From positions 1-57,225 of the forward strand of contig JASEHA010000001.1 in the NCBI GenBank assembly GCA_030018795.1: 57,225 nucleotides of DNA, given 5' to 3'. The stretch is from a bacterium (lineage in GTDB: Bacteria; UBA9089; CG2-30-40-21). The notes beneath the pieces were generated by a model that did no database searches, was not told the origin of the DNA, and saw nothing but the letters and a program-made list of their open reading frames with translations. Below, piece by piece: positions 6,001 to 36,000 of this stretch; position 1 is the first letter of the stretch; each line of letters begins with the position of its first letter. The position numbers and the translations under genes are program-made.

Positions 6001-9000
6001 ATCGGGCTGACAATAAATATTGGTTTGACACCATTTGATGCCAAAGCAGATGAAGATGGAACATTCTCGGTAACATTTAATATAGATGATGAACCGTTTG
6101 GCAGTAACACAGTTACAGTTTTAAGTAAAGATAGTCTGGTTAAAGATACAAGGTGTTTTGTGGTTAAACCCATGGTCAGTGTAACACCTGTAACTGGTAC
6201 GGTTGGAGCGTCTATCACGGTTTCTGGTAATGGCTATGCTCCAACAGAGGTAATTCAAATAGACTTTGGGACAAGGGTAGAATACGCGACAACATCAACC
6301 ATTGCTTCAGGTGATCCGTCTGCGTTCCGCGGCTCGTGGCAAAGGGTAATGGCAGTAGATGTTCAGCCATATGGAACAACAACTATTCTGGCAACAGGGC
6401 TGGGCTCAGGTGGCATAGAAAGGTGTATCTTTAATATCAGGCAAAGATTAACAGCGATTACACCGTCTTACGGGACAGTTGGCAGCACTGTAACCGTGAA
6501 TGGCAATGGCTATGCAGCGTTAGAAAATATCAGAATAGGGTTTGGCAAAACGACAAGCATTTACAGCATACAATCTTATGATAATGGTGTGTTTCAGGCA
6601 GTCTTTACAGTTGATACCCAGCATGATGGTCCTAAGACAGTGCTTGCAAGCGGGCTGGGCTCTGGTTCTGATACGACTACTTATACCATTATGCCACATA
6701 TTGTTTCTGTCTTACCATTTACCGGGACAGTGGGCACAAGCATAACAGTTATTGGGGATGGGTTCAGGACATCAAGCAATATTCGTATTGATTTCGGGGA
6801 TAAAGAAGGTATCAGGACACTTGTTACCTCTTTTGACGGTACATTTACCACAAACTTTACCGTGGACATTCAGTCACAGGGGACAAAAACTATATGGGCG
6901 ATGTATGGGGCTGAGGTTGGCACCATCAGCAGTTTTGTTATTAATCCAAACATTACTGAAATTACACCGGCTGCAGGAATAGTTGGCTCAAGTGTAACAG
7001 TTACAGGTAATGGCTATTCTCCAAGCACGGTGTCCATTTACTTTGGGACAAATGCAGCCATGATTACAAATACAATTGCCAGTAGTGCCGGCACATTTAC
7101 CAAAGACTTTGTGATTAATACTCAAGCCTACGGCACTACTACAGTAATAGCAAAGGATATGGCTTCAGGGAAGCAGTCTATAGGCAGCCTTACCATTAAA
7201 TCAAACATCTATGAGCTGACACCAACCTCAGGGACAGTAGGCAGTTCAGTAACCATCCGGGGGACAGGGTATATTGGTGAGGTATATAAGCAGATAAGGA
7301 TTGATTTTGGGAATACTCAAACTATTGTGAGTGATATATATACAGGAGCTGCTAATGGGACATTTAGTGCTGTATTTTTTGTCAATACTCAAGGGTATGG
7401 GACAACAACCATCAAGGCAACCTATATTAATGATGCCAACCAGACCGCAGAGAGGATTTTTGCTATTCAGCCTGTTATTTACAGGATTAGTCCGACATCA
7501 GGCACGATTGGGGCAGATGTGACTGTTTATGGGAATGGCTATGTAGCAAGCGATGTTGTTTCTATAGCATTTGGTTTGACATCAGGTATTGCTACAGCTA
7601 CGGTAGAGGCACAGGGTTCATTTACTGCCAGTTTTATGGTTAATACCCAGCCGCTTGGATTGACAACAATTACAGCCTCAGGGACAATGAATACCACAGC
7701 CAGCTTTATGTTCAGAATAGTGCCAAAGATTACACTGGTTAGCCCTGGTAATGGAACGGTGGGAACAATAGTTCAGGTTGAGGGTAATGGTTATCAGGCA
7801 AGTGAGCAGGTAACCATCAAGTTTGGAGCACAAAATGTGAGCTTAATAAATGCCTTTAGTGATGGCTCGTTTACCACTACATTTACAGTAACTACACAGA
7901 AATATGGGACAACAACGATTACTGCTACTGGTGGGACTTCAGGTGGGACAGCGACAGGCACCTTCTTTATCCTGCCTGAGGTTTATCAGGTTTCACCCAT
8001 ATCAGGCACAGTGGGCACATTGATTACGATTTCAGGCACAGGGTTTGGGGCAAACGGTACTGTCAGCATCAAGTTTGGTGGGACTGCAGGTATTGCTAAT
8101 AAAAAGGCGTCTGCTAACGGTTCGTGGACAACAACATTTACTATTAATGCTCAAAGTTTTGGCACCACAACTATTGTCGCATCTGATATAAGCATACCAG
8201 CAGCAACAGCCTCAAATATCTTGAGGATTTTGCCATATGTTACGATTACCCCAACAGCTGGGAGTGTGGGAACAACTGTGTTTATATCTGGTAATGGTTA
8301 TGGGAGTGTGGAAGGTGTTCATGTTGGGTTTGGAACAATCATCACGGCTACAACCATTACCTCAAATACAGATGGTTCATTTAGCGGCTTATTTGTGGTG
8401 GGTCTGCATACATACGGAACAACAACCATAACAGCTGCTGGCTTAAATACATCTGCTGCTGAAAAGACATGCTTTGATGTGGTCTCTGCCATTACCCTGA
8501 TTACACCGACTCAAGGCATAGTAACCACAGTAGTTACTATAGCTGGTAATGGCTTTGGGGCAAGTGAACAAATAACTATTGGCTTTGGGAATATGGCAGG
8601 TATAGCCCTGTGCTCAAGCGATGACTATGGTTCATTTACCACTATCTTTACTATAAATACACAAAGCTATGGGACAAAGTCTGTGTTTGCTACAGGTACT
8701 GTCTCGGGCGAGGTAGCTATAAGTGCATTTAAGATAATTGGCAGGTTCTATGGTGTTTCTCCAAATAAGGGAACAATTGGAACAGTGGTTACTATTAAGG
8801 GTGATGGATATCAGGCAAGTGAGCTATTGTATGTTGACTTTGGGCAGACAACAGATATTATTTCAACAGCCGTGTTTGCGGATGCAGAGGGCTCCTTTAC
8901 CTTTACCTTTACTGTAAACACTCAGGCACAGGGAACAACAAGTATTATTGTGAGGGCAACTCAATTTGGCAGCAATCAGAGTATAACCAATGTCTTTAAT

Positions 9001-12000
9001 ATTGAGCCGCATATTACTAATGTGGCTCCAACAGATGGCTTTGTTGGTGATTGGGTGACAATTACTGGTGATGGCTTTGGGGTGTCAGAGACAATAGGTG
9101 TCAAGTTTGGAACAACATCAGCCATTTCATTGATCAGCACGAGCGATAAAGGGACATTTACGGCTGCATGGACAGTTGATACTCAAGGGTATGGGACAAC
9201 GAGCATTGTTGCAGTTGGAGAGATAAGTGGTGTGAGCGACTGGGATGAGTTTGTAATTAAGGCAAAGATTACCAGTGTAACACCCAGTCAGGGGACAGTA
9301 GGAACGATTATTGTGGTTGATGGTAATGGATACAGGGCTTCTGAATGTGTAAAAATAAGCTTTGGCAATCATTCAACCATTACCACAGCTATTGCAAATG
9401 GCTCAGGTGTGTTTACAGCGTCCTTTATTATTGATACACAATCTTATGGGAATACCACTATTACTGCCATAGGTACTGGTTCTGGAGCAAGTTCATCTGG
9501 CAGCTTCAAGGTGCTCAGTGAGGTTCCCTGGATTAGTCCAACAATCGGGACAGTTGGAACAGTAGTTACTGTGCTTGGGACTGGTTATGCGGCTTCGGAA
9601 TGGATATCTATTAATTTTGGAACAACAGACGGTGGTGCAATAATAAATAAGCTTGGCACAACCTCTGTAAACGGCAGCTTCTCAGTAACATTTACGGTTA
9701 ATACCCAACCCTATGGAACAACTACAGTAAAGGCTTATTCTCATGATTATCCATCAACAAGGTATTTTGAGAGAGGCTTTGTTATCACATCAAGGATTCT
9801 TACTGTTACCCCGGATCAGGGGACAGTTGGGAAATTGGTAAGTGTTACTGGTAATGGTTTTGGGGCAGTAGAAGGGGTGAAGATTAAGTTTGGCAGTGAG
9901 GTTACGATTGCTATAATTACCTCTGGCAGTAATGGATTCTTTAGCGGCTTCTTTACAGTAAATACTCAGGGGTTTGGAACTAAGAGTGTTATAGCAAATG
10001 GGCTGCAAGATACAGCCAATCATACTGGTCAGGCTGAGTTTAAGATAAGGGGCAGGATGACTAATGTAACACCATTGTCTGGAACGGTTGGCTCAAGGGT
10101 TACGGTTAAGGGTGATGGCTATGGAAGTTATGAGGATATAGCTATTAAATTTGGTGAAACAACAAGCATTACGACTGCAAAGGCAGAGTTTGGCACAGGT
10201 ATATTTGCTATTGGCTTTACAGTTGACAGCCAGTGTTTGGGTACAAAGACCATTACCATCCTTGGGCTTGACTCAGGAGAAACAGCTACAGCAGCCAGCT
10301 TTACTATCAAACCTGAAATATGGAGTGTTAGTCCAACCAAGGGTTCGATTGGCACAGTCGTTATCCTGAAGATGACCGGCTATGGTCCAACAGAATTGAT
10401 AGCTATTAACTTTGGGAATATCTCAAATATTGGTTATAGTGATTATACCTCAAATAATGGTACTGCTTTGGCAACAATAACAACAACAACTCAACCCTAT
10501 GGCACAACTACGATTACAGCTATTGGCACTATTACTGGTGCCTCTGCTGCCAACAGATTTGTGGTCAGTCCAAACATTACTTTAGTTACACCCAAGCTGG
10601 GCAGTGTGGGCACATTGGTAAATGTTACCGGTGATGGCTATTGGGCAAGTGAGACGGTTACGCTTGAGTTCGGGACAGGCTCTACAAAGCTTACAAAACA
10701 GGGGACAGCTAGTCAGATGGGTATCTTTAACCTGACGTTTACGGTTAATACTCAGGTGTTTGGGACAAAGACAATAACAGTCTCAGGGACTACTACTGAT
10801 ACCCATAAGGCAGAGAACTATGACTTCAAGATACTACCCAGCATTATTGAGGTTACACCAGGGCAGGGGACAGTAGGGCAAATAATCACGGTTAAAGGAA
10901 ATGGCTATGCTTATGAAGCAATAACGATTGGATTTGGGACTAATGCTGCTATTCTTACTAACAAATGGGCAAATACAAATGGCACCTTTAGCTTTAACTT
11001 TACTGTAGATACTCAAAGATATGGTACGACAAGTGTGACGGCTGCCGGTGCAATCGCTGGTATGGCAACATCCACATTCTTTATCAAGACAAGCATTTAT
11101 TCCATTTCGCCGTCAGAGGGAACGGTAGGATCATTGTTGACTATTAATGGTAATGGGTTTGAGGCAGGCATAGAATTATCTATTCGCTTTGGTGTGCCGC
11201 TGTTGCAAAACCCTGGAACAACAACAATTGCCGGCAGCTTTGAACGATTCTTTACCTTAAATGAGCAGCCTGGCGGAACGGTTACAGTAAATGCAACTGC
11301 AGGAGAAGCAAAAGCAGATAGGGCATTCTATATTAAGGCAAATATCCATACAGTCAGCCCATCTGAGGGTTCTGTAGGAACGAGTGTAACGATTGTTGGT
11401 AATGGATATAAGGCATCTGACACCATATCAGTTAGTTTTGGGACAACACCCAATATAGGTACTGCCTCTGCATCAGGTGTGGCTAATGAAAGCGATGGTC
11501 TTGGTGGCACATTTACCTTAAGCTTTACCATTAATTCTCAACCATGTGGTTCAACCACTATTACGGCTAATGGACAAACACTTAATAGTGCTTTTAATAT
11601 ATTCTATATCAAGGCAACTATCTATAGCATGACACCAACAGCAGGGACAGTAGGGACATTGGTTAATATCTCTGGAAGCGGGTATAAAGCAACCGAGATG
11701 ATTAATATCAGCCTTGGCAGTCATCCTAATATCACTAATAAGGTTAGCGGTACAGATGGCCGGTTTACAGTCTCGTTTGAGATTGATACTCAACCCTTTG
11801 GCAGTACAACCATTAGTGCTATTGATGATGATGAGCCATCTATTGCTGGTTATGAACGATTTATCATTAGACCAGCTATCTATGCTACAACCCCGACCAT
11901 TGGGACGGTTGGCAATGTAGTAATCATTAATGGTAATGGCTTTGGGGCAGATGAGGGGATAATGGTTGGCTTTGGGACAACACCAACCATTACTGAGGTA

Positions 12001-15000
12001 TTGGCGAATGGTTCTGGTGTGTTTGAGGCAACATTTACGGTTGATAACCAATCAATAGGTTCAAATACCATCACAGCCTATGGGACAACTACTGGTACAT
12101 CAGCGGTTTCTTACTTTAGGGTTGAGCCGCGATTGACATTGATTATACCAGAGACTGGCTCAGTGGGAACAGTGGTGAGCTTGAATGGTGATGGGTATCA
12201 GGCAAATGAATTGGTCAGGATTAATTTTGGTAACAGGGCATCTATTACTACGACAACAGCCTTAAACGATGGACGCATTATCACCAGCTTTACCATTGAT
12301 ACTCAAGTTTACGGGACAACGGCAGTAACAGCCATTGGCAATGTATCAAATGGGACAGCAGTAATTAATTTCCATATCACACCAAATGTCCATACTGTTA
12401 GCCCGAAAACTGGCACGGTTGGAATGACTGTAACCGTGATCGGTGATGGGTTTAATTTCCAGGGCAATAATATTGTTATTGATTTTGGTGATGCATCTGG
12501 ACGGGCTAGTGTTGCGGCATCTAATAATGGCTCATTCAGCACCACCTTTACAGTAGATACTCAAGTTTTTGGGACAAAGACGGTTCATGCTTCATGGACC
12601 AGTGTGGATACAAGTATATTTGCCGATAACAGCTTTAAGATTATTCCAGCCATACATACGGTTTCACCATCTACTGGTACGATTGGTCTGGTAATTACTG
12701 TTGCCGGTAATGGTTATGGCTGGTATGAAAATGTTGAGATTGGGTTTGGAACAACACCGAGTATTGTTAAGCCGCAATGTGGTACTATCGGACAATTCTC
12801 AGTTATCTTTACGGTTAATACTCAAGTGTATGGAACATGTGCAGTGGTTGGGACAGGGACAGACAATAGCTGTGTGGCTGCATCTACATTTTTCTGTCTG
12901 CCGCATATTGTTTTAGTTACACCGAGTTCAGCTACAATAGGCACCTTGATTGCTATTACTGGTGATGGATATATTGGCAATGCAAATGGCAGTCTTACCT
13001 TTGGGACATATCAGGGTGAGATGGGCACAGCATCGGTTGCGGGTACGTTCAGCACTGTATTTACCTTAAATGAGCAGGCTGGCGGTTCGTTGACTATTAC
13101 TGCCAGATCAACTGGTGCTGGTCATGAGGCTGTTGCACCATTCTATGTTAAGGCAAATATTCACACCCTGACACCAACAACGGGTACGGTTGGCACATGG
13201 GTCCAATTAACCGGTAATGGATACAGGGCATTGGGGACAATTACTATCCATTTTGGTTCAACCAAAACAGTAGCAACTACTCAAGCATCTGATATTGTCA
13301 ATGGTGAGGGTGGAACATTTACTAAGGGCTTTACTATCAACACTCAGGTCTATGGGACAACAACCATAACCGCGGCAGGTTCAATTAATTCAGCCACCAG
13401 ATCCTTTACCATTCTGCCCAATATCTTCAGGGTTTCACCTGATACAGGCACAGTAGGGACAAGGGTGACAGTGGCTGGTAATGGTTATCCAACAGGTGCA
13501 ATCAGTCTTAATTTTGGAAATAAATCAAATATTGCTACTGGTACAATGGGGACATTTGGCTCGTTTACCCTATCCTTTACCATTGATACTCAAGGTTATG
13601 GGACAACAACCATTACTGGTATTGGCACAGCAGGGGTATCATTTACACGCACACTTGTTATCCAGCCCAATATCTGGCGGGTAAGCCCAAATAATGGGAC
13701 AGTAGGGACATATGTGACGGTTTATGGTAATGGTTATGGTGCAGGTGAGATGGTAAACATTGATTTTGGTACTACCCTATTGATTACTGCCACAGCTACA
13801 ATAAGTAATGGCAGCTGGACAGCCATCTTTACTGTAAACAACCAGTCCATTGGCTCAAATACCATTACTGCTACTGGGGTAAATACAGGCACTGTAGCGG
13901 TATCATCATTCGTAGTCAAGCCAAAGATAACCAGTATTACCCCAACATCCGGGAGTGTGGGCACAGTAATAACCATTACTGGTAATGGCTATCAGGCTTT
14001 GGAGTTGATTCGTGTTGATTTTGGAAGTACCGCAAGCGTTACTCAGGTTTCAGCAAGCATAGATGGAACATTTGATGTATTCTTTACAATTGGTGTTCAG
14101 AAATATGGGACAACTGCGGTTATAGCTCAGGGGATAAATTCACAGGGCTCATCAAGTATAGGGTTTAAGATAACACCGAATGTTGTTTCTGTTTCACCGA
14201 GCGAGGGGACAGTAGGCAGGGAGATTACAGTAACTGGTAATGGGTTTGAATATGGACAGATAGGGATTGGCTTTGGGCAGACACCTACCCTGACAAATGT
14301 GATGAGCAGTGGGAATGGTTCGTTTACCATGAGCTTTGTTATTGATACTCAGGTTTATGGGACACAGGCAGTTAAAGCATATATGATGACAAATCAGAAT
14401 GTATTTGCAGAAAAAACATTCTTTATCTGGCAGACTATTGATGAGATAACACCGAATAGGGGAACGGTTGGGACAATGATTACGGTGAGTGGGACAGGGT
14501 TTGATGATGGGGATGTGATGAAAATAACGCTTGGTGTGGCAGATGAGTGGGATATTCCCTCTGCAAGTTCAAGGGGTTCATTTACAGGCAGTTTCCAGAT
14601 AAATACTCAAGGGTATGGAACAACAACGGTTACAATTCGTGGTGTTAAACCTCCAGAACAAGGAACATCTACAACATTAGTAATTTTGCCGGGGATATAC
14701 TCGGTGTTACCAACAGAGGGGAGTGTAGGCACATTTGTTACAGTAATTGGTAATGGGTTTGTGGCTACAGATGTGGTAAGTATTGCCTTTGGAATTACAT
14801 CAAATATTTCTACAGCTACAGTAGGAAGCAATGGTTTGTTTACTGCTTACTTTACAATCAATACCCAGCAGCTTGGCACAACAACGGTTTCTGCCTCAGG
14901 GACAATGACAACCATAGCTACCTCAACCTTGAGGATAATTCCTGCCATTACTATGCTTAGCCCAACAACCGGCAGTGTTGGGACAGTGATAAGCATAGAG

Positions 15001-18000
15001 GGTAATGGCTATAATAATGAACAGATAAGGATTGAGTTTGGAGACAGGGCAGCTATTACGACCATAACCGCCAGTGGAGGGGGCACATTTGCCACGAGCT
15101 TTATGGTTGATACTCAAGTATATGGAACAACAAGCGTGGGTGCAATTGGTATTACATCACAGGTTCCGGCACAGGAGAGGATTTTTGTAATATTGCCAGC
15201 CGTGTTTAGGGTTACACCAACTATTGGTACGGTTGGAAGTCCTGTCACTATTTACGGCAATGGTTATGGATCAGATCACTTGATTCAGGTTGATTTTGGA
15301 ACAATACCAAGCATTACTCAAACAACAAGTGATGTTTGCGGCTCATTCACAGCCAGCTGGACAGTTGATACGCAAGCCTATGGGATGACATTGATCACAG
15401 CAAAGGATGTTAATATTGCTCCAGAAATAGTTTCTGCAAACAATACCTCCTTTACCATCTGGCCAAATATCATCCTTGTTTCAACCTCCGGGACAGTTGG
15501 CTCTTCTGTACAGGTTCAGGGGAATGGTTATGGAATAAACGAGATAGTTGACATAAACTTTGGGACAACTCCAGGTATAACAGAGATTGGAGCAAATGGC
15601 ATTGGTGTGTTTACTACAAACTTTACAATCAATCTCCAGCCATATGGCACTACTACGGTCAAGGGTGCAGGCAGAAGCACATCAAATGTTGTTATTCCAG
15701 AGAAGCTATTTAATATCCTGTCTAAGGTTACAGGTGTAATGCCTGCTATTGGGTCAGTAACAACATTGGTTACAGTCTACGGCAATGGCTTTGGTGCAGA
15801 GGAAAAGATATGGGTGAAGTTTGGGACGACCGTATCAATTACAAGCACAACCACAGATATCTATGGCTCGTGGACAGCCACATTCAGCATAGATACTCAA
15901 TATTATGGTACCAAGACAATCACGGTAAATGGTGTTAATTCAGGCAGATATGATTCTGGCATGACTAAGTTAGTTGCCAGAATGTATCAGGTTTCGCCAA
16001 TATCAGGCACAGTAGGCAGTACAATAACCATTTGGGGTGATGGATATTCACCATATGAAACACTCAGATTTCAGTTTGGGAAATATTCTGCAACCAATCT
16101 AAATGGTAGTATTAATGACTGGATAGCGGCATCTGGTGAAGGAACATTTAGTGTATATTTTGTGGTTAGTACCCAGTCTGCTGGTACAACAACGATTACT
16201 GCTATTGGTGATGTAGCAAAATCTGGTCAAATTGTAAAAAATATATTCTATATCAAGGGTAAAATTCTCAATATTCTTCCATCAAATGGTACAATTGGAA
16301 GCAGGGTAACGGTTACTGGTAATGGCTTTATCTCATCTGAAAGTGTCAGGATTGATTTTGGGCAGAGTATGAGTATTGCTATAGTCAGCACCAGTATTGA
16401 TGGGACATTTAGTGTTGGTTTTACAGTTGATGTTAAACCAATGGGTACGGTTACAGTGGCGGCTGTAGATAGATTGACCACAGATAGTAATATCTTTATG
16501 GTCAGGTCTGCTTTAACCAATATTTCACCCACAGCTGGTATGGTCGGGACACCTGTTTCTGTTTCAGGCAATGGTTTTCAGGCAGGTGAACAGATACAGA
16601 TTGATTTTGGCAGCAAGATAACCATGACTATGACAACGGCTGATATTAGTGGCATTATAGGTGTTACCTTTACAATAGATGAACAGCGAAATGGTAATAC
16701 TCAGGTAGTTGCTACAGGTGTAATTACAGGGGCAACAGGAAGCATAGGATTTACTATCAGACATAATTTAGTCTATATTACCCCTGCATCAGGCACAGTA
16801 GGCAGCAAGATAACAGCTTATGGTAATGGCTATGTACCCGGGACAATAACCATTGGATTTGGGAATAAATTTGGGCTTACGAATAGTGTGATTAATCAAA
16901 ATGGCAGTTTTACGGTTAGCTTTACAGTTGATACTCAAGCTTATGGTTCAACCGCAGTAAGTGCTCGTGATGGACAGAATAACTCAGATACAGAGGTGTA
17001 TACCATCCTCCCCCATATTACCCAGGTTTCACCTATGGCTGGTACAGTTGGTTCAATTGTTTCTGTGCGTGGTGATGGGTATAGTGTAACAGAGCAGATA
17101 AGGATAGGGTTTGGTACGAATAATACCATTACTACGGTTGTTGCCGGACTTGATGGTTCATTTAGTAATGCTGTATTTACTGTTGACATTCAGCCGTCTG
17201 GTACGGTGGCTGTTACTGCGGCAGGGTTATTGGATCAGTCTATGCATGTAGATACAGATGAGTATCGGATTAAGGGGAATATTGTTGAGGTAATACCTCT
17301 ATCAGGAACAATTGGTTCATCTGTAACCGTTACAGGTAATGGTTTTGGGGCATTAGAGGGCGTGCAGATAGGGTTTGGGAATACGCCATCTATAGCCACG
17401 ACTCAGGCAGCAGGGGTGGGAACATTCTCAGTTGGATTTACAGTAGATACTCAGGTGTATGGAACAAATACGGTAAAAGCAAATGGTATTACTACAAATG
17501 ATATAAGTTATAAATATTTTGTGATTACACCAGATATCTATTTCATTACTCCAGTAGATGGGACAATTGGCACACCTATAACCATTGCTGGTAATGGTTA
17601 TGAATCAGGCGGTGTGATTAGAATTGATTTTGGGACAATTGATGGTGTTTATAGCTGTAATGCCAACTCTGTTGGCACATTCACCGCATGGTTTAATTCA
17701 ACCATTCCGCAACCCTATGGAACAACTACTATTACCGTAAGTATTATTGATACCGCACAGATAGCCTATAAATACTTTACTACCCTGCCAAGGGTTTATA
17801 GCGTAGCACCAACAGAGGGCTCAGTTGGTACGAGTATTACGGTATGTGGCGATGGGTATGGTAAGAGTGCGAGTGTCAAAATAGACTTTGGCAATACAGT
17901 AAACAGGGTAACTGGACAGACTAATAACTCTGGTACCTTTACAGCAGTGTTTACCATTGACACACAAATTTTTGGAACAACAACGGTTAAGGCATTGGGT

Positions 18001-24000: not shown

Positions 24001-27000
24001 TCTGTCAGTCCAGCCGAGGGCAGCGTAGGGACAAGAATAACCATTGATGCTGATGGGTATTCAGCTAACTTCCCGGTAAGGATAGACTTTGGGACAATAC
24101 AGAGCAAGGCAGTTGGAACAACCTCTGCTTCAGGAACATTCAGCACCAGCTTTGTTATTGATCCTCAAGCTTATGGGGTAACAACCATTACAGCTACCTG
24201 TAAGCTAAATACTGCTGCAAACATATGCACGATACTGCCAAACATTATTCTGGTCACACCAACACATGGCAGTGTAGGCGTAAGAGTTACAGTTCGTGGC
24301 GATGGTTTTGGTGCTACAGATACCATTAATCTTGATTTTGGCAGCACAATAAAGATTGTAACACCAATGTCTGATAAATATGGGACATGGACAACTATAT
24401 TTACCATTGATCTTCAGCCATATGGGACAACAACTATTTCAGCCTATGACGAAGAAACAATACCTGTTATTTGGGCATATGACAGGGTCAGGATTGATAC
24501 GCATATTACACTTGTAACACCACTTTCAGGGACAGTGGGATCAGTAGTAAGCGTAACAGGTAATGGGTTTGGAGCAAGTGAGCAAATAAGGATTGAGTTT
24601 GGGACAACGCAGAGTATCACATCTGTTATGTCAACAAGTGATGGATATTTTGAAGTAAACTTTACGGTTGACAGTCAGTCAATAGGTACCAATACCATTA
24701 CTGCTTATGGATTAAATACCGGGCAGAGTTATGCTACCTATACCTTCAGGGTAATGCCCAAGCTAACGAGTATTGTGCCTACAGAGGGCACGGTTGGGAC
24801 AACCATAACCCTGTATGGTGACGGCTTCCGCAAGAGTGAAACCATTAAGATTGACTTTGGCAGTACCCTGACCATGACGGTTGAGGCAAGCAATGATGGT
24901 TCATTTGTGCGTGAGTTTGTGGTCAATGAGCAGGCATATGGGACATGCTCGGTTGTGGCCACAGGGCTTTCTTCTAATGGCAAGGCAAGCATTGACTTTA
25001 AGATATTGCAGAGTATTATCTATCTAAGCCCAACAACCGGTACTGTGGGCAGGGTTATAACAATATCAGGTCAGGGTTATGGTTATCATAACTATGTAAG
25101 GATACAGTTTGGAACAACCCAAACCCTGACACAGAAGCTTACGAGTGATGGTGGAACGTTTACCCATACATTTGCCATTGATACTCAAGTTTATGGGACA
25201 ACAACACTGACTGCATGGGATGATAATCATAATATTTATATTGAAAGGACACTGTTTATCCTGCCAGAGATAATCACTGTGACACCAAATAGTGGTACGG
25301 TTGGCAGCTCTGTCACAATTGCTGGTAATGGGTATCAGAGGGACGAGATTATTCGAATTGAGTTTGGATCAAATATAAATAGAACAATTCCTCTGACTGT
25401 TGTTACCGAATATGGTTCGTGGACAACTACATTTACTGTAGATACTCAACCATATGGCACAACAACTATTACTGCTACAGACGGATTAGCAGCTACCTCA
25501 AAGCTGTATACCATATTGCCAGAGATTATCCTTGTTACACCAAACAAGGGGACGGTTGGATCCATGGTAACTGTAGCTGGCAATGGCTATGGCTCTGGCA
25601 AGCAGATAAGGCTTGAGTTTGGCAGCGTGACAACAAAGATAAATACAATGGCTGATGTCCATGGTTCGTTTACCGTCAGCTTTACGGTTGATACCCAATA
25701 CTATGGCACAACAACGATTGGAGCACATGATGATGATAATCAATTAACAATTCGGAAGAAGTATACCATCCTGCCCAATATTATCCTGGTAACACCAAAG
25801 GCTGGAACGGTTGGAAGTTCAGTAATTGTTGCTGGTAATGGGTTTGGGATGGCTCGAAGTATCAGGATAACCTTTGGCAATACCCCAACCAGGGTAGTTC
25901 AGGTTTGGGCAGAGCATTGCGGATCATTTACCGTATCGTTTACCCTTGATACTCAAAGCTATGGCACAACAACCATTACAGGACATGATGATATGTCTGG
26001 GATTAGTGCCTCAGAGACAAATATCATTTTGCCCGAGATTATTCTGGTAACACCGGCTAAGGGTACGGTGGGGACGATTATTACCATTGCTGGTAATGGT
26101 TATGGCTCATCCAGGCAGGTGAGGCTTGAGTTTGGCACTACGCAAACCATTACTACGGTTCAGGCACAGGTCAATGGCTCGTTTACCACAACCTTTACGC
26201 TGGATACTCAAGGTTATGGGACAACAACCATTACGGCTCATGATGATTTCTATCAGGTAAGGTCAGCCAAGGCAGCGGTTATCCTGCCCAATATATTTAG
26301 TGTTTTACCGCAGTTTGGTTCGGTGGGGACATTGGTTACTATCAAGGGCAATGGTTATGGGGCTACTGAGAATATCAAGGTTGACTTTGGGACAACACCA
26401 GATGTGAAGCGGGTAGATACCGATGTTACTGGTTTATTTACAACTGTATTTACTGTGAACCTCCAGCCATATGGAACAACAACGATTATGGCTATTGGGG
26501 CAGGGACAGGTGTATTTAGCTGGAAGCAGTTTGATATCTCATCTGTGATTACAGATATGACACCAACCAACGGCTCTGTGAGTACAGTGGTTAATATCTC
26601 TGGTAACGGCTTTGGCAGCTCAGAGCCTATTCGTATAGTCTTTGGACAAAATGCAACCATTACCAAAACAACCTGTGATGTTAATGGTTCATTTACAACA
26701 ACCTTTGTGATTGATACCCAAATTTATGGGACAAAGACCGTAACCGTTATTGGACTTGCTTCAAACAGGAATAATTCTCGCAACTTCAGAATTGATGCAA
26801 GCATTGTCTATGTTTCACCGAGTTATGGCAGTGTTGGCACAGTGGTTACCATGCTTGGGACAGGATATGGCGTTGAAGAATTTATCTATGCTCATTTTGG
26901 AACAAAACAGCAGATTGCCTCTCTGCTTAAGGCAAGCCAGAATGGTTCGTTTACCATCAGGTTTACTATTGACACTCAAGCCCTGGGAACAACTACAGTT

Positions 27001-30000
27001 ACAGCTGAAGGGATGAACAGGGCATTGCAAAAGGCATACAATACCTTTGTCATCAAGCCAGAGGTCTGGCGGGTATCACCAACAGAGGGTGTTGTGGGAA
27101 CACTTGTTACGGTTTGGGGTACTGGTTATGTATCAGGTGAGACTGTCAGGCTTGACTTTGGAACAAAGATTGAATCAGCTACGGCAAGTGCTATTATTGA
27201 TGGCAGCTTTGTGGCTTACTTTGTGGTTGATACTCAGCCAGTTGGGACAACCACTGTCAGGGTAACAAGCACCACTACTGCTTGGACGCATTATAACTAT
27301 TTCAAGATAACCACAGGTATCTTTGTTACACCTCAATCAGGGAGTGTGGGGACAACCATCAATGTTTGGGGTGCTGGTTATCAGGCTGATGAGCCGGTAA
27401 GGATAGGCTTTGGGACAAATAATAGTATTACCACTACTCAGGCATCTAATATAGGCAATATCAATACCACCTTTACTATTGATGCCCAAGCCTATGGCCC
27501 TCGCCCAGTAGTGGCTGCTGGTATGGCATCAGGTGTAGCAGCAGCAACAACATGTAACATATTCCAGCACATTACCCATGTTTTGCCAAATACTGGTCCT
27601 GTTGGAACAGATGTTGAGGTCAGGGGTGATGGCTATGAATGCACTGATACGATATCTATCAAATTTGGGACAACACAACAGATAGTCTTTGGGCCAGCAT
27701 CATATGATGGTACATTCTCACTCAAGTTTGTGATTGATACTCAAAGTTATGGGACAACAACCATAACAGCTACCGGTGTTAATGGTATTAAAGAGGTTGA
27801 TGATGATACCTTCTTCATCACCTCAAAGGTGCATGTGGTTACGCCAACTACAGGCTCAGTAGGCACATTGGTCAGTGTTATTGGCAAGGGTTATGCAGCT
27901 ACTGAGACCATCAGGGTAACCTTTGGGACAACAATAACCATTGTTTCACCAATAACCTATATCAATGGTATGTTTGAAACAAGCTTTACAGTTGATCACC
28001 AGTTCTATGGTACAAAGAGCGTTATCGCTGCTGGTTTACAGGATGAGGTCAATCACTTAGCAGAAAATAGGTTCCATATTGAGTCAGATGTGCCAGTGAT
28101 TACACCAACCTATGGAACGGTAGGCAGCTATATTACCATTGTTGGGACTGGTTATGGAAGCAATGAGAATGTGACCATTGATTTTGGCAAGACAAAGCCA
28201 ATCAAGATACCTGCTGCTGATGTAAAGGGTGACTTTACTATTATCTTTACCATTGATACGCAAATATATGGCACAAAGACCGTAATTGTTACTGGTACAG
28301 ATACACAACAGGTGGTTAACCGATACTATAAGATCATGCCTGAGGTGGTAAGATTGACACCATCCTTTGGTACGGTTGGGGTAAATGTTACGGTTTATAT
28401 GACTGGCTATGGACAGGAAGAGCAGATATGGCTGCACTTTGGGACAGATAGTTATTATAAGAATAGTGCCTATAATACCTCAATCGATGGGACACTTACC
28501 ATGGAGTTTGTGGTTAATACACAACCCTATGGATCAACAACATTAACTGGTGAGGGTGTAAATACAGCATGCTCAGCCTATAATTTCTATGATATTAAGT
28601 CCAATATTATTAAGATTGAGCCGACCACTGGCTCGGTTGGAACGATTGTGATGGTAGCTGGTAATGGATTTGGGGCAATCTCAAATATACGTCTACAGTT
28701 TGGAAATAATGCATCGATTACCTGTGTTGCCTCTATGGCAGAAGGCTCGTTTACAACAACGTTTACTGTTGATACTCAACGCCAGGGGATTACTACGATT
28801 ACAGCATATGACACCAAACAATCAGGTGCTAATGCCTCAGGGACACTTACCATTACTGCTAATATCACTGGCATAGTCCCAACAACCGGTACAGTAGGAA
28901 GCTTTGTCACGGTTTATGGTAATGGCTATGGGGCAACAGAGAATGTCAGGATAATCTTTGGTAAGAATATGAGCATTACTACAACTAAGGCAGCAGAGGC
29001 CGGGACGATTGCAGCTGTGTTTACCATTGATGCTCAAAGCTATGCGACAAAGACAGTTACAGGAAGGGGTCTGAGAACAAACCAGCAGTCATCCATTGAG
29101 TACTTTATCAGGCCGCACATCACCCATGTCCTGCCAGATAATGGGACGGTTGGCACGCATATCACTGTTAAGGGTGATGGATATAGTCCGACCGGGACAT
29201 TGTGGATTGATTTTGGCGGCAGGGTTTATCCATATCAGATTGCGGCAACACAAACCACAGCAGATGGCACGTTTACGGTTGAGTTTGATATTGATACCCA
29301 GCCAGGTGGGACAACAACTATCATGGCACATGACTATTATGATGTGGGAACAATAGCCACATTCTATATTACGGCCAGGATATACACTGTTACACCTGCC
29401 TCTGGCACGGTTGGCACAGGGGTTACTATTTGGGGCAATGGCTATGCTGCCTCAGATACAATACAGGTTAATTTTGGGACAACATTATCCAGGGCAGTGG
29501 TTCAGACAAGCGGGGTTATAGGTTCTGGTAATACTGGTGGTGCTGGTGGAACGTTTACAGTTTCATTTACCATAGATACTCAAATCTATGGCATAACAAC
29601 CATTGTTGCCTCTGGCTCTATCCTTAATCAGGCAACCAATACCCTGATTATTCTGCCAAGGATCATTCGAGTTTCACCAAACTATGGCACAGTAGGGACA
29701 TCTGTGACGGTTTCAGGTAATGGTTATGGCTATAAGGAACGCATTGAGGTTAATTTTGGTACCACGTCAACCATTGCTTATACTACCAGTGAGAAATATG
29801 GTTCATGGACAGTAGTTTATACCATTGATCATCAACCGCTTGGTACAAAGACAATTACTGGCTATGGGCTGGCTACTGGTATATCTGCTGCAGAGACATT
29901 TGTTATCAATCCAAAGGTTGAGTTTGTTTTACCAAACCATGGCACGGTTGGATCAAGTGTGTATGTTGAGGGTGATGGCTATGCAGCCAATGAGGGTATA

Positions 30001-33000
30001 AGGATAAACTTTGGGACAAGCAAGACAGTATATACCCAGGCTGATAAATATGGTTCATTCTCAACCACCTTTACTGTTGACACTCAAGGCTGGGGTGTGA
30101 CTACTATCTGTGCCACAGGGACATCATCAGGGACATCATCCATTAATTTCTATGACATTGAGACCGAGATAATCCTGGTTAGCCCAACCTTTGGGACAGT
30201 AACAACCATGATTACAATTAAGGGTAATGGGTTTAAGATAAATGAGCTTGTCCGAATTGACTTTGGGAATACAACAAGCATTACTGAGGTTTATGCAGAC
30301 AATATTGGTTCAATTACAGCAATATTTACGGTAAATACTCAAGTTCATGGGACAAAGACTATTTCAGCTACAGGTGTTGTCTCCAATCAGCCGGCTGATG
30401 GTTACTATAGAATCATTGCTCGTGTATGGGAGGTTTCGCCAAACAGCGGTACGGTTGGGAAAACGATTACGGTTAAGGGTGATGGGTATTGTGCGACAGA
30501 GATGGTTGCGATACAGTTTGGGACAGAGCTGAATGTTGCACCATTATATCGAGTAACAGAAGACCTAAATGTTACAAATACAGATGCAAATGGTAGCTTT
30601 ATAACCACCTTTGTTGTTCCGGCTCAACCAGCTGGCACAAGCACTGTCCTTGCTCGCAGCTGGCAGACCAATCCACAGCAGGCAGTTAATTATCTCAAGG
30701 TTACAGGGCATATTGTCAGTGTGAATCCACCATCAGGACCAGTGGAAAGAACACAGGTTATTGTCCATGGCAATGGGTTTGGAGCAGAAGAGCTTGTCAG
30801 AATAGACTTTGGAAACACCTCATCTATTGCCATTGTTTCAGCCGATATTCATGGTGTATTTGAGGCAAGATTTACGGTTAATACCCAGCCGGTTGGTATG
30901 ACTACCATTGTGGCTACAGGGCTTATATCAGGGACATCTGATGATGATACATTCTATATCACTACCGGGGTAACATCCATATCCCCAGCAGTAGGTACTG
31001 TGGGTATGAATGTCCATCTTGAGGGGACTGGTTATGAGGCAGATGAGACTGTGCGTGTTGATTTTGGGGATGATACAGGTGTAGTTACAGCTACAGCCAT
31101 GGGAAATGGTATCTTTGCGGTTAACTTTACTATTACATCTCAGGCATGGGGTGATGTGGTGGTTATGGCTCAGGGTGTTAGTTCTGGTGCATCAGGTACT
31201 ATTATGTTTAAGATGAATGAAAACCTGATTATTACACCTACAGCAGGCACGGTTGGAAGCACGGTTTATCTGACGTGTACTGGTTATGGAGTCAGCGAGG
31301 GGATAAAGGTTAGATTTGGAACAACATATCCCATGCTTCAGGGTCAAGCTACTGGACATGGTGTTTTTATTACGCAATTTACCATTAATGAACAGGTTGT
31401 TGGCTCAACATCTATTACTGCTCTGGGACAAACGGTTGGTACTAAGTTTACCCAAATATTTACTATTCGTCCAGAGATATGGGTTAGTCCATTGGATGGA
31501 ACGGTTGGAAGCATTATAATCGTATGGGGCACAGGGTATGGGGCAGATGAGGATATCAGGGTTGACTTTGGCAATACCATAACCATTAATACCGGTCATA
31601 CAGATAATTGTGGTACATTCAGTGTTGCCTTTACTATTAATACCCAGCCTATAGGTCCAACGACCGTTACCTGCACTGGCTTAAACAGTGGGACATCAAC
31701 AGATGCCTTTGTTACTATTAAACGCGAAATTACCGGTGTATTTCCAACCTATGGCTCGGTTGGGGCAACCATTCTGGTTGAGGGGACAGGGTATGATGCT
31801 GGTGAGCCTATTCGTATAGGGTTTGGAACAACAGGGAGTATTACGACAACCTATGCCAGTCTAATGGGATCGTTTAGCGTAACCTTTACCATTGATACCC
31901 AGTTTACCGGGACAAAGACTATCACTGCTCATGGCTTACAGTCTCATGCTGAGTACTATGGCTATTGCCGTGTTATGCCCAAGATCACCCTTGTTTCACC
32001 TGCTAACGGGACAATTGGGACACCGGTATATGTTACTGGTACTGGTTATGGCGAAGGTGAGACGGTTAAGCTTGATTTTGGTACTATTATGAATAAGGCA
32101 AGCTCATGGGTTGCAACGAATGTAGGCACATTCAGCGGCTGGTTTAATGCCAATGACCCACAGGCTTATGGTACCACAACGGTTGTGGTAACAGGACTTA
32201 CCTCGAATGTGGCCACCATCTCCTACTTCTTTATTGGGGTTAAGCTGACAGATGTTGTTCCATCATTTGGAACCGTTGGTCAGGTGGTTACGGTTTATGG
32301 TAATGGATATAATCCTTCTGGCAATATCCATATTACCTTTGGCAGGAGCCCAACAGCTGCGACTACGGTTACTGATGCTGCTGGCTCGTTTATTGTGCCG
32401 GTTACGGTTGATGTACAGGCATTTGGAACAACCACGGTTATGGCTACAGGTGTAGATATCGGGGTATCATCTACTTTCTCTAAGTTCTTTATTATTAAAT
32501 CGAATATCATCTATTATGAGCCGAGTGAAGGCTCTGTAGGGACAGTAGTAACCATCCAGTCTGATGGTTATGGGAGCAATGAGCTGGTGGTTATTGGGTG
32601 TGGGATGAATCCTACCCTTACGACCACCCAAGCCTCAACGAATGGCTCATGGACACATGTATTTACCATGGATACGCAACCCTATGGAACGCATACTATT
32701 ACAGCTACTGGCATGGATAGTAAAGAGGTTAATTATCGACTATTTAAGATTACACCAAGGATTATCCTTGTTTCACCGTCTTATGGTACAATAGGGACAC
32801 AGATAGGGGTGCGGGGCAATGGATATTATGCCAATGATGAATTAAGGGTGTATTTTGGTACTACAGAGGTAGGCACAGAGGGTGAGACAGATATTATTGT
32901 TTGGACAGATAACGTAAGAGGCAGCTTTACGGTTTACTTTACCACAGGGATAAGGCCTGCAGGCACAACAACTATCCTTGTCCGAAGCAAGGGTTATCCG

Positions 33001-36000
33001 GGTCAGCGTGATACATCTACATTCTTTATCATTCCCAAGATTATTATTTGCACACCAACACATGGAACGGTTGGCACAACCATCAGCCTTGAGGGTAATG
33101 GGTATTATGCAACAGAAAAGGTGAGGATTAACTTTGGGACAAATGGAACCATTACCACAGTAACTACAAGCGGAATAACTCAGGTACCATCTCAGGATTG
33201 CTGGGTAGGCGGCACCTTTAGTGTTACCTTTACTGTAGATACTCAACCCTATGGCACAACAACTATCCTTGCTACAGGGCTTGACTCTAACCTGACGGCT
33301 AAGGAACAAGTCTTTATTGAGCCAGCTATTCCGTTTGTCATTCCAGATAGGGGGACGGTTGGGTCAGAAGTAACGGTTAAGGGCAATGGGTATAGTGTCT
33401 CTGAAGGGATTGTGGTTGATTTTGGCAAGTATTTGAATATGGCCCAGGCAATAACCGATATCAATGGTTCATGGACAGCCATATTTACTGTTGATACGCA
33501 ACCCTATGGCACAACAACCATTCGGGCAATTGAAACAAGAACAGGGATTGCAGCAGAGAATACATATATTATTGTTACCAAGCTTTCATTGGTTACACCA
33601 ACACGAGGTACGGTTGGGACGATTATCTCTATCTACTCTAATGGGTATGGTAATGATGAAATCATCAATGTTATTTTGGGGACAACACCATCAATAGCCA
33701 TTACGCAAGCTTCAAGTGAGGGGACATTTAGTGCAACCTTTACCATTGACAGGCAGCAGCTTGGCGATACCTTGCTGCGGGTTGTTGGGATAACTACAGG
33801 CAAAGAAGATACTGGCTGGATAACTATTAACCCGGCCATTCCATCGGTTTCGCCAACAACTGGAACAGTAGGGGCATATGTGACAGTTATTGGCGACGGC
33901 TATAAGGCAACTGAAGGGGTAAGGATTTCTCTGGGTAAGAATACAACTATCTCTATGGTAATCACAGATGTTTGTGGTTATTTTGAGTCTATATTTACTA
34001 TTGATACTCAGGTGTATGGGACAACAACCGTCACAGCTGCTGGTCTTGATTCTGGCACAATTTCATTCAACAGGCTGAAGATTACCCAGGAGATTATTAC
34101 CTTGTCGCCGAATAATGGGACAGTAGGAACAATTGTTTTGCTTGAGGCAAATGGTTTTGGTGCAAATGAACTGCTCAGGATTGACTTTGGAACAGTAAGA
34201 ACGATTACTACAACAAGTGCCAATCTGAACGGCTCATTCTCTACCACGTTTACCATTGATACTCAGAGCTATGGAACAACAACCGTATTGGTTACTGGCT
34301 TAGTTACAAACGAACAGGATATGGTTTTCTTCAATATCAGACCAAGAATAAGATTGGTAACACCTTCATCTGGCTCAGTGGGAACAATTGTTAACCTATA
34401 TGGTGATGGATTTGGTGCAAACGAGGATATAGGGATTGACTTTGGCAAAACAGCAACTATTGTGCAGACGAGCACAAACATCTATGGTGCGTTTAATATA
34501 GCCTTTACCATTGATGTCCAGCATGAGGGAACAACCAGTGTGCTTGCCAGAGGGCTGACATCAAATGAGCAGGCAGGGAATGAGTGTCGCATCTTTGCCC
34601 ATATCACCCTTCTTACACCAAGTGTTGGAACGGTTGGCAGTATAGTTGTTATTGAGGGTGATGGTTATGGCGATGAAGAGGTTATCAGAATCGATTTTGG
34701 GACAACACAGAGTATTACTACTGTTGTGACAACCTTTGACGGCACATTTAGCGTCAGCTTTACTGTAAATCCACAGGTATATGGCTTTACCAGTGTCAGG
34801 GCATATGGCTTGACCTCAAGTGAAGAGGATAGTACCCGGTTTATAGTTACAGTTGATGCGACGACAATTACTCCAAATTCAGGACCCATTGGAACAGTAG
34901 TATTGATGATGGGTGCCGGGTATGGAGCAAGTGAGACCATTCGCATCTCTTATGGTTCAACTAAGACTATTGCTACCTGCACAGCAAATGAGGCAGGACT
35001 ATTTATAGTTAACTTTACCATTGATACTCAAGCATGGGATGTGATATCTCAAGGGTCAAAGACTGTGACAGCATATGGGCTAATAACCAATGCCTCCTCA
35101 TCCCTTACTTATAAGTTAATCCAAAGAATTTTGAGGGTAGTGCCAACCCAGGGTAGTGTAGGAACGCTTGTTTCTATCTGGACCGATGGATATGCACCCA
35201 ATGAGCCTGTCTGGAATATATTTGGCTCATCACCACATGGGCCAACATATTATTCATCTGCAGCAGGAACGCTTACCTCAACCTTTACGGTTGATACTCA
35301 ACCAGGTGGGACAACAACCATTACAGCTGAGGGTAGATTTGGTTCATTTGGTATTGCTCAGAATATCTTTATCATCAAGGGCAGGGTATTGTCTGTTAAT
35401 CCTTCGAGTGGAACGGTTGGGACAAGGGTGACGGTTAGTGGTGATGGTTATGGAAAGGATGAGATGGCTGTGGTTCACTTTGGGTTTACTCAAACCATTA
35501 CCTATGCTGCGGTTAATCCAGCAGGTAAGTACAGCACCTCTTTTGTGGTTACGACCCAGCCAGCAGGAACAACAACCATTACGGTGGTAGGTCCTGTATC
35601 TAATCAGGAGAGTATGGGATACTTCAAGGTAGAGACTGGCTTGACCCTGATTACACCGTTAAAGGGTACGGTTGGTACATTAGTAACCATTGAGGGTTGT
35701 GGCTATGGCAGCAGCGAGGGTATTCGTATCAGTCTGGGAACAACACCAACTATTACCATAGTGACAAGCAGTCCTTATGGCTCGTTCTCAGTAACCTTTA
35801 CCGCTAATACCCAGCCGCTTGGTGGCAGGGTTTTATCTGCCATTGGAATAAATAGCAAGATAGTAAAGAGTGGTATGTTCAGTATTCAGGCTACAGTAAC
35901 AAAAATATCTCCTGATTTTGGGACAATAGGCCGAATAATTACAGTTTGGGGTAATGGTTTTGCCTATCCAGATAAGGTTTATGTGCAATTTGGCGAGGGA

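Follow-up and report, generated by a model that had tools for sequence, protein, structure and literature searches.

An ancient 21-module super-repeat in a giant gene of tandem IPT/TIG-like modules from Candidatus Desantisbacteria

The DNA analyzed here is a stretch of 57,225 nt from contig JASEHA010000001.1, referred to throughout as the window. It is an internal piece of a single giant gene of more than 57 kb from Candidatus Desantisbacteria, which extends past both ends of the window, and in which short protein modules are organized, above the level of the single module, into super-repeats based on a block of 21 modules. A frame scan showed that frame +0 runs without a stop codon across the whole window (19,075 codons, cut at both ends), whereas all other frames contain hundreds of stops each. 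Using a hidden Markov model (HMM) of the module, built from the window sequence itself, we divided the product into 222 head-to-tail modules, most of them 82-96 residues long, with both terminal modules cut. The gene can therefore be described as a single feature:

1-57225, + strand: internal fragment of a giant open reading frame (ORF) with 222 tandem IPT/TIG-like, immunoglobulin (Ig)-fold modules of about 85 aa (frame scan, module HMM, Pfam TIG, AlphaFold2)

Standard domain annotation badly under-calls this protein, and only a minority of the modules are seen by Pfam. The segment that we describe below as unit 2 matched the Pfam family IPT/TIG (PF01833) in six stretches with 127.9 bits (gathering cut-off 20.9). 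Recognition by Pfam TIG was nevertheless patchy, reaching E ≤ 0.01 in only 11 of 75 three-module segments, and residues 1-1000 of the window were without any Pfam match at E ≤ 0.01. Big_6 was found in three of the 75 segments and Big_3_5 in one. No RTX family was among those reported by Pfam for the scanned parts of the window, and the window does not show the BIg-type calcium-binding extender repeats of the giant adhesins of the RTX/type 1 secretion system (T1SS) kind. When the module profile was compared with the sequences in the PDB, the only match was a marginal one (E = 0.006), with the cyclodextrin glucanotransferase 1cyg.

For modules 83-85, AlphaFold2 gave an all-beta model (pLDDT 95, pTM 0.85) with three beta-sandwiches and about 6-7 strands per module. 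The top Foldseek matches of this model were tandem Ig-like surface proteins, i.e., an S-layer protein (7ptp), SiiE (2yn3) and the RII region of MpIBP (6xi3), an ice-binding adhesin from Marinomonas; it also matched the IPT domains of plexins. The modeled structure thus shows the modules with a predicted Ig-like fold, and the 222 modules, taken with this fold evidence, represent the stalk of tandem Ig-like domains that is typical of a bacterial fibrillar adhesin. Several smaller homologs (P0022, P0025, P0038-P0042 and P0069), from the same or unnamed bacteria, contain the same type of module together with other domains. Signal peptides were present in these smaller paralogs, and the additional domains were a right-handed beta-helix at the N-terminus, domains of the cohesin/dockerin or beta-propeller type, and, at the C-terminus, a sorting domain (PF18962) of the type IX secretion system (T9SS). 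Their domain content suggests a family of surface proteins exported by the T9SS. The fold, together with these paralogs, leads us to infer that the giant protein is a secreted rod or fibre at the cell surface.

The original prediction, made from the sequence alone, was that four rare module variants (anchors A-D) recur in the same order at fixed offsets between 8491 and 34857, marking super-repeats of 28, 21, 21, 14 and 18 modules. When these anchors were placed on the HMM module boundaries, every anchor coordinate fell at a constant position within its module, as follows:

Anchor A: modules 34, 62, 83, 104 and 118
Anchor B: modules 41, 69, 90, 111 and 125
Anchor C: modules 44, 51, 72, 93, 114 and 128
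Anchor D: modules 47, 54, 75 and 96

The anchors were therefore confirmed, with lags of 28, 21, 21 and 14 modules, plus one of 7 modules within the first unit. The module counts of 28, 21, 21 and 14 were exact, and the unit lengths obtained with these independent boundaries (7236, 5391, 5430, 3621 and 4689 nt) were the offsets originally given. To compare modules we used Z, an information-weighted, double-centred module score. The resulting layout, with the two signature modules, is:

7483-8496, + strand: modules 30-33, the end portion (unit positions 18-21) of another copy lying upstream, matching modules 58-61 at lag 28 (Smith-Waterman lag-28 path)
8497-15732, + strand: unit 1, 28 modules (34-61), consisting of positions 1-15, a tandem repeat of 9-15, then 16-21
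10582-14187, + strand: ancient 7-module tandem duplication within unit 1, modules 42-48 (10582-12393) and 49-55 (12394-14187) (lag-7 path)
15733-21123, + strand: unit 2, 21 modules (62-82) (identity with unit 3, mean Z 2.69)
21124-26553, + strand: unit 3, 21 modules (83-103)
26554-30174, + strand: unit 4, 14 modules (104-117), positions 1-14 only; positions 15-21 absent
30175-32250, + strand: supported part of unit 5, modules 118-125, recognisably in register only at positions 1-4 and 8
32251-34863, + strand: modules 126-135, the remainder of the fifth copy as predicted, without detectable in-register signal or end point
8497-8751, 15733-15987, 21124-21378, 26554-26808 and 30175-30429, + strand: A signature module (G-x-V-[T/S]-T replacing GTVGT)
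11884-12138, 13678-13932, 19090-19347 and 24511-24768, + strand: D signature module (D[N/S]QSIGxNTITA)

The start predicted at 8491 proved to be too late, as the signal begins four modules upstream, at module 30 (nt 7483), where the lag-28 path aligning modules 30-49 with 58-77 commences. The G-x-V-[T/S]-T variant was confined to modules 34, 62, 83, 104 and 118, the nearest other form being G-I-V-T-N in module 209. The D modules were also closely related to each other, with Z values of 8.5 (75/96), 5.4 (47/75), 4.9 (47/96) and 4.8 (47/54), and within the D-module region blastn aligned 19222-19378 with 24643-24799 at 71.5% identity and an offset of 5421.

Units 1 and 2 had an in-register mean Z of 1.34 over positions 1-14 and 1.29 over positions 8-21, with shifted registers near zero, and the best non-self BLASTP matches of unit 1 were at +49 and +28 modules. 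The 7-module duplication within unit 1 was evident from the pairs 42/49 (Z 3.8), 43/50 (2.5), 44/51 (5.5), 47/54 (4.8) and 48/55 (4.6), and both of its copies were present in the orthologs P0018 and P0006. Unit 2 was 44.5% identical to unit 3 by BLASTP, compared with 37% or less elsewhere. Within unit 3, modules 99-102 (25276-26298) were mutually alike, and there was a signal at lags 1-2 over modules 95-102; modules 99-102 are a local overwrite that leaves unit 3 at 21 modules. Unit 4 had an in-register mean Z of 1.31 against unit 3, its best BLASTP match was at -21 modules (41.3%), and the junction at its end, between modules 117 and 118, was conserved in the ortholog P0013.

The proposal of an 18-module fifth copy stood only in part. 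Its offset of 4689 nt was reproduced and approximately its first 8 modules were supported, with module 118 scoring Z values of 2.1-3.4 against modules 34, 62 and 83, and position 8 scoring 4.1 against unit 2. Its remainder and a defined end were not supported: the ranks of the in-register partners of modules 126-135 looked random, and the mean Z of unit 5 was, over 18 modules, 0.86 against unit 2 and 0.58 against unit 3; against unit 4 it was 0.17. We also considered a sixth unit starting at module 136 and rejected it, as this module reads GPIGT and has Z values of 1.6 or less against the A modules, and units 5 and 6 were unrelated (mean Z -0.31).

In the 222 x 222 matrix of module protein identities the mean was 0.37. 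Units 2 and 3 were 0.453 identical in register, compared with 0.34-0.38 when shifted by 1-5 modules; the equivalent figures were 0.417 versus 0.35-0.38 for units 3 and 4, and 0.407-0.416 versus 0.35-0.39 for units 1 and 2. When module order was shuffled 300 times, the best lag-21 diagonal stood at z = 14.6-16 relative to the shuffled sets, the in-register mean Z was 2.69 for units 2 and 3, and shifting the register by 1-7 modules in either direction abolished the signal. Module-level Smith-Waterman alignment, for which the 95th percentile of the null distribution was 14.7, yielded paths at lag 21 (modules 49-95 versus 70-116, score 58), lag 28 (30-49 versus 58-77, score 19.6) and lag 7 (41-49 versus 48-56, score 18.7). 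Over modules 30-125, the autocorrelation vector peaked at lags of 21 (10.5), 28 (3.6), 42 (2.4) and 49 (4.4) modules, and the lags of 7, 28, 42 and 49 are derived from the 21-module pattern.

Similar results were obtained by other methods. When the 75 three-module segments were compared using MAFFT, modules 83-85 were 42%-47% identical to their four in-register partners, versus 31%-39% to the 70 others. A neighbour-joining tree of modules placed 25 in-register pairs in clades of four tips or fewer (null mean 2.6, null maximum 8), with the A-type modules 34, 62, 83 and 104 forming a single 4-tip clade. An all-versus-all identity matrix and a module tree had been suggested at the outset as a check, and in both of them same-position modules did group, as seen in the lag-21 diagonal and in the 25 in-register pairs. 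With the orthologs as queries, the second and third high-scoring segment pairs (HSPs) lay at offsets of 7, 21, 28, 42 and 49 modules, in either direction. Same-position modules were more alike than modules within a unit only at positions 1-6, 8, 9, 11, 12, 14, 15 and 21. The super-repeat pattern is real.

At the DNA level the picture was very different. The copies had been thought to share about 60% of their nucleotides; the codon-aligned nucleotide identity that we measured in register was only 0.51-0.55, against 0.49 for any two modules, and four-fold sites were at background (0.35 in register versus 0.36). Between units 2 and 3, pS was 0.70, i.e., saturated, and dN was 0.53. The other check suggested, a dot-plot or autocorrelation of the DNA, revealed no continuous diagonals at 1.8-7.2 kb: Tandem Repeats Finder (TRF) reported only a 246-nt triplet at 42.6 kb in the window, self-comparison by blastn produced no diagonals, only a small number of short HSPs offset by 21, 28, 49 and 63 modules, and gapless autocorrelation of DNA and protein displayed the 85-aa period without a peak at 5.4 kb. 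These tests were blank because drift in module length and synonymous saturation hide the pattern, so that the absence of off-diagonal lines, offered originally as a ground for refutation, would have led to rejection of a true pattern. Nor does the window have the between-unit identity, far above that between monomers, by which a DNA higher-order repeat is recognized.

The longest exact match between modules had a median of 10 nt at every lag, including 7 and 21, and even modules 96 and 103 shared only 11 nt. We therefore rejected the existence of a recombination substrate at lag 7 or 21. Because any two modules have only about 10 nt of exact identity, the module order is now frozen. One pair at lag 28, modules 30 (7483-7734) and 58 (14701-14952), was an outlier, with 61% protein identity and, by blastn, 68.8% identity over 301 nt (7530-7828 versus 14748-15043), far above the rest of the lag-28 diagonal. 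This similarity predates speciation, since module 30 is about 60% identical to the orthologs of module 58 as well; gene conversion at a later time, or strong constraint on the module, could account for it.

Those strong homologs that were named to phylum were partial proteins from Candidatus Desantisbacteria bins; others were labelled "bacterium", and one was mislabelled as Woesearchaeota. Every homolog that we found was annotated as partial. The ortholog fragments aligned with the window without rearrangement, at 65%-94% identity per module, and covered it as follows:

P0018: window modules 33-49
P0006: window modules 49-67
P0001: window modules 55-80
P0003: window modules 82-102
P0024: window modules 95-108
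P0013: window modules 110-129
P0064: window modules 123-168
L002: window modules 134-188
L001: window modules 1-34, plus 21 more modules upstream

In addition, P0011 and P0015 extended the array downstream by further modules. The ends of the gene were not reached by L001, P0030, P0011, P0015 or P0064, all of which were internal module arrays, and no long related loci were returned from the collections of genome contigs and metagenome contigs.

A clear one-to-one ortholog was found for 191 of the 222 modules, and fragments from other bins spanned 208 of the 221 junctions between adjacent modules collinearly, including 33/34, 48/49, 55/56, 61/62, 82/83, 103/104 and 117/118. This collinearity, from 33/34 to 117/118, amounts to conservation between species of the kind displayed by the super-repeats of titin and nebulin. 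Compared with the window, the orthologs had dS values of 0.50-0.89 and dN values of 0.13-0.22, with dN/dS ratios of 0.20-0.25, and they evolve under purifying selection. Orthologs were also far closer to each other (73%-85%) than were paralogs (39%-45%). The original suggestion that these are ancient segmental duplications that have been retained was therefore upheld by the pS of 0.70 between units 2 and 3, by collinear orthologs across the junctions checked, and by the low dN/dS. Both the age and the conservation of the pattern are established by these results.

Three side observations concern individual fragments. P0004 (L005; GCA_016208715.1, JACQXV010000080.1) is labelled as a Candidatus Woesearchaeota archaeon but clearly has the gene of the Desantisbacteria type, its modules corresponding to 79-82 being 71%-80% identical to those of the window; the label is likely to be due to binning contamination. 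At 9527-9597 of L001 (bin HY793), the ortholog of the giant gene is split by a frameshift, reflecting either an assembly error or a real disruption. In L002, module 54 corresponds in position to window module 179 and has its best match (0.75) in window module 100; this may be due to conversion or to a scaffold error.

Changes in steps of 7 or 21 modules were also found in relatives, where the duplication process can be seen in action. Contig L003 (bin COZ13, GCA_002784185.1), which encodes P0003, contains a second copy of modules 96-98 after module 102; the two copies are 79.7% identical over 745 nt at an offset of 1791 nt, i.e., 7 modules. This is an extra 7-module tandem duplication, of modules 96-102. 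The dS between the duplicates (0.74) was similar to that between COZ13 and the window, and the breakpoint lies within a conserved GTVGS...GNG motif. P0002 (contig L004) and P0004 (L005) contain a 21-module cycle composed of orthologs of modules 79-94 plus five more modules, and P0010 has the same series of modules without completing a cycle. The two ends of L004 match each other over 149 nt (90.6% identity) at an offset of 5403 nt; in L005 the terminal repeat is exact, 81 nt long, and lies at an offset of 5316 nt. Each offset equals one 21-module cycle. A location of this P0002-type cycle upstream of the window was rejected, as the upstream part of L001 matches P0030 instead.

Elsewhere in the gene, modules 166-168 (42649-43386) form a young single-module tandem triplet with 63%-78% protein identity, detected by TRF with a period of 246 at 42637-43349. 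In L002 (bin HY792), the ortholog of this triplet has about ten copies at the same place, a count that is approximate since L002 contains 20 N. P0005, P0011 and P0012 contain long runs of the 82-aa module type of modules 166-168. This looks like a zone of variable copy number, unlike the frozen super-repeat zone. Modules 208-222 (53347-57225) contain younger repeats at lags of 1-7, especially 211-215 versus 216-220 (57%-61% in protein; 64%-66% by blastn), and many of them carry a Cys in an xCxGYG motif. In P0015 (bin AAB296), the ortholog of this C-terminal zone, there is an additional, near-identical repeat at a distance of 940 aa (11 modules). Modules 212 and 217 (approximately 54364-55893) resemble the modules 89, 108 and 110 found at unit position 7, with 0.51-0.57 identity at lags of 109-128, and this resemblance hints that the C-terminal array may have been seeded from the unit-position-7 module type. 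Antisense ORFs of 150-200 aa, such as 21937-22539 and 11551-12051 (both on the - strand), occur within the giant ORF, and nothing points to their being genes. GC skew was positive over all 57 kb, which we attribute to the base composition of the coding strand.

How did the super-repeats arise? We are fairly confident that they reflect ancient tandem duplications of many modules at a time, which then persisted with no concerted evolution. A block of 21 modules (about 5.4 kb) would have been copied in tandem at least four times, giving rise to units 1-5 and to the upstream copy of which the tail is seen. One copy, unit 1, would then have gained the internal tandem duplication in which modules 42-48 gave rise to 49-55, and another, unit 4, would have lost, or never received, its last 7 modules, all long before the sampled Desantisbacteria lineages diverged. 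No homogenisation has followed, every module has gone its own way under purifying selection, and copies in register are now only slightly more alike than any pair of modules. With neighbouring modules lacking DNA stretches long enough for homologous recombination, their order is frozen and inherited collinearly. In-register unequal exchange between neighbouring units would naturally produce additional gains of exactly 21 modules, such as those observed in the L004 and L005 lineages. The order of the duplications, and unequal crossing-over at conserved motifs as their mechanism, are what we infer from these comparisons.

Several observations weigh against this account. Positions 7, 10, 13 and 16-20 were without in-register signal, even between units 2 and 3, so that the evidence for a single clean block duplication does not extend to every module. 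Local overwriting has occurred at modules 99-102, mosaic histories are possible, and unit 5 is weakly supported. Simple neutral duplication leaves unexplained three events of exactly 7 modules, at three phases of the unit, given that there is neither 7-periodicity nor microhomology, and it does not explain why the count of 21 was kept despite local overwriting. As to the protein itself, neither gene ends, nor a secretion signal, nor an anchor was found in the window or in the ortholog fragments, leaving its role as a cell-surface fibre to rest on the paralogs and the fold only.

Some of these difficulties would disappear if a period of 21 modules, with a sub-period of 7, were functionally selected, making the protein a bacterial counterpart of the molecular rulers titin and nebulin. 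For example, 7 modules might make up a whole number of helical turns, or the fibre might be aligned with a periodic partner or with further copies of itself, and the super-repeat zone would tolerate changes in length only in steps of 7 or 21 modules; at our own estimate of about 4 nm per module, the fibre would then have a 21-module period of about 80-90 nm. Such selection would account for three separate 7-module events at different phases (the duplication in unit 1, the truncation of unit 4, and the duplication of modules 96-102 in L003), for the recurrence of 21-module cycles in the L004 and L005 lineages, and for the retention of 21 modules in unit 3 in spite of the overwriting of 99-102. 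The signature modules A and D are held at fixed positions in those units that have these positions, as well as in orthologs, and the pTM of 0.85 for three modules may indicate a defined inter-module geometry. However, the weaker 7-module periodicity, for which a test had been suggested, was absent between and within units 2 and 3 (z = -0.37 at a shift of 7 and -0.03 at a shift of 14), and unit 5 and everything downstream of it are irregular. Elsewhere in the protein there are differences of 1, 2, 5, about 8 or 11 modules between or within lineages, the conservation of orthologs was not linked to in-register retention (rho 0.17, p = 0.46), and the autocorrelation of module length at lag 21 was weak (r 0.22, p = 0.03 uncorrected), losing significance on correction for the number of lags tested. 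Moreover, the count of sevens is post hoc and comes from three events, and no partner or lattice is known. We therefore regard a selected period as unlikely. The related idea that unequal exchange is favoured at a spacing of 7 modules found no backing either, since nothing in the present sequence favours it, with exact matches of about 10 nt at every lag.

Could the array instead be a higher-order repeat at the DNA level, still maintained by unequal crossing-over or gene conversion as in satellites? The L004 ends (90.6% identical over 149 nt) and the exact 81-nt repeat of L005, each one unit apart, are what such concerted evolution would produce in relatives. Within the window, by contrast, the units are 51%-55% identical against a background of 49%, exact matches are limited to about 10 nt, and orthologs (73%-85%) are closer than paralogs (39%-45%). 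With synonymous sites saturated as well, ongoing concerted evolution, to which we attached very little probability, is refuted for the window. An equally improbable explanation was that the pattern is an artefact, i.e., rare variants recurring by chance in a set of 222 similar modules, or errors in the assembly of a gene that is indeed highly repetitive, is fragmented in short-read bins, and is represented by homologs all annotated as partial. The modules are too diverged (about 49% nucleotide identity) for assembly collapse, and an artefactual origin is refuted by the permutation tests of module order and by the independent ortholog fragments, from several bins, that span 208 of the 221 junctions in the same order. 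Ancient block duplication without homogenisation is the explanation that we favour.

On this favoured explanation, a giant prokaryotic surface protein can grow by very large block duplications (21 domains, about 1,800 aa), like the filament proteins of eukaryotes, and each duplicated copy can stay distinct over long evolutionary time. The frozen, position-specific order of modules can serve as a set of coordinates when these genes, which short-read bins shatter, are assembled and compared. The recurrent steps of 7 and 21 modules raise the question of whether bacterial fibres have selected long-range periods.

Giant bacterial fibrillar adhesins, such as SiiE, MpIBP with its RII region, the LapA-type RTX adhesins and the 51-domain adhesin of Mobiluncus, resemble the present protein in having a very long stalk of tandem Ig-fold domains, presumed to form an extracellular rod, and the predicted structure matched SiiE (2yn3) and MpIBP RII (6xi3) in Foldseek. 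Their stalks expand one domain at a time, often with near-identical copies, as in MpIBP, and we know of no multi-domain super-repeat in such a stalk. Their domains belong to BIg or to other Pfam families, and RTX/T1SS or sortase features are present; such families and termini were not seen in the window, where the modules are divergent IPT/TIG domains, and the paralogs point to the T9SS. Higher-order repeats of satellite DNA have in common with the window a short monomer nested in a multi-monomer unit of amplification, and in-register unequal exchange, which explains gains of whole units as in L004 and L005. They differ in that the array in the window is coding, under purifying selection, saturated at synonymous sites and not homogenised.

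The multi-level hierarchy had been described as unusual, which was an overstatement, because growth of domain repeats in steps of several domains is described as common, the 7-domain unit of nebulin being the textbook case (Bjorklund et al., 2006; PMC1553488). In nebulin, as here, multi-module duplication units were found using an all-versus-all similarity matrix and autocorrelation, and there is a quantum of 7 modules. However, the nebulin modules are 35-aa helical actin-binding repeats and the 7 corresponds to the thin-filament period, whereas here 7 appears only as the size of three insertion or deletion events and not as a periodicity of the sequence. Among filaments made of Ig-like domains, the closest analogue is provided by the super-repeats of the A-band region of titin, with their 7- and 11-domain patterns of Ig and Fn3 domains (PMC10665226). 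Both are giant filaments of tandem Ig-like domains of about 90-100 aa, in which same-position domains are more similar than neighbours, the pattern is conserved between species, and block duplication has occurred. Titin, however, has an ordered mix of two domain families matching the 43-nm period of the thick filament, whereas here there is one family in a 21-module unit; a fixed order of distinct domain types, as in titin and nebulin, is lacking, and only signature variants (A, D and the long-loop modules) mark the positions. The present gene is also prokaryotic, with a single uninterrupted ORF, and its copies are far more diverged (39%-45%, against a background of 37%). In the literature searched, we found no prokaryotic case with a 21-domain unit and no paper on giant genes or super-repeats in Desantisbacteria, and a preprint on giant genes of Omnitrophota did not describe this architecture. 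The array is thus not a new kind of system; it is an unusually large case, having a 21-domain unit in an uninterrupted prokaryotic ORF, and its pattern looks like the trace left by old block duplications, of the kind known from titin and nebulin, rather than a demonstrated structural ruler.

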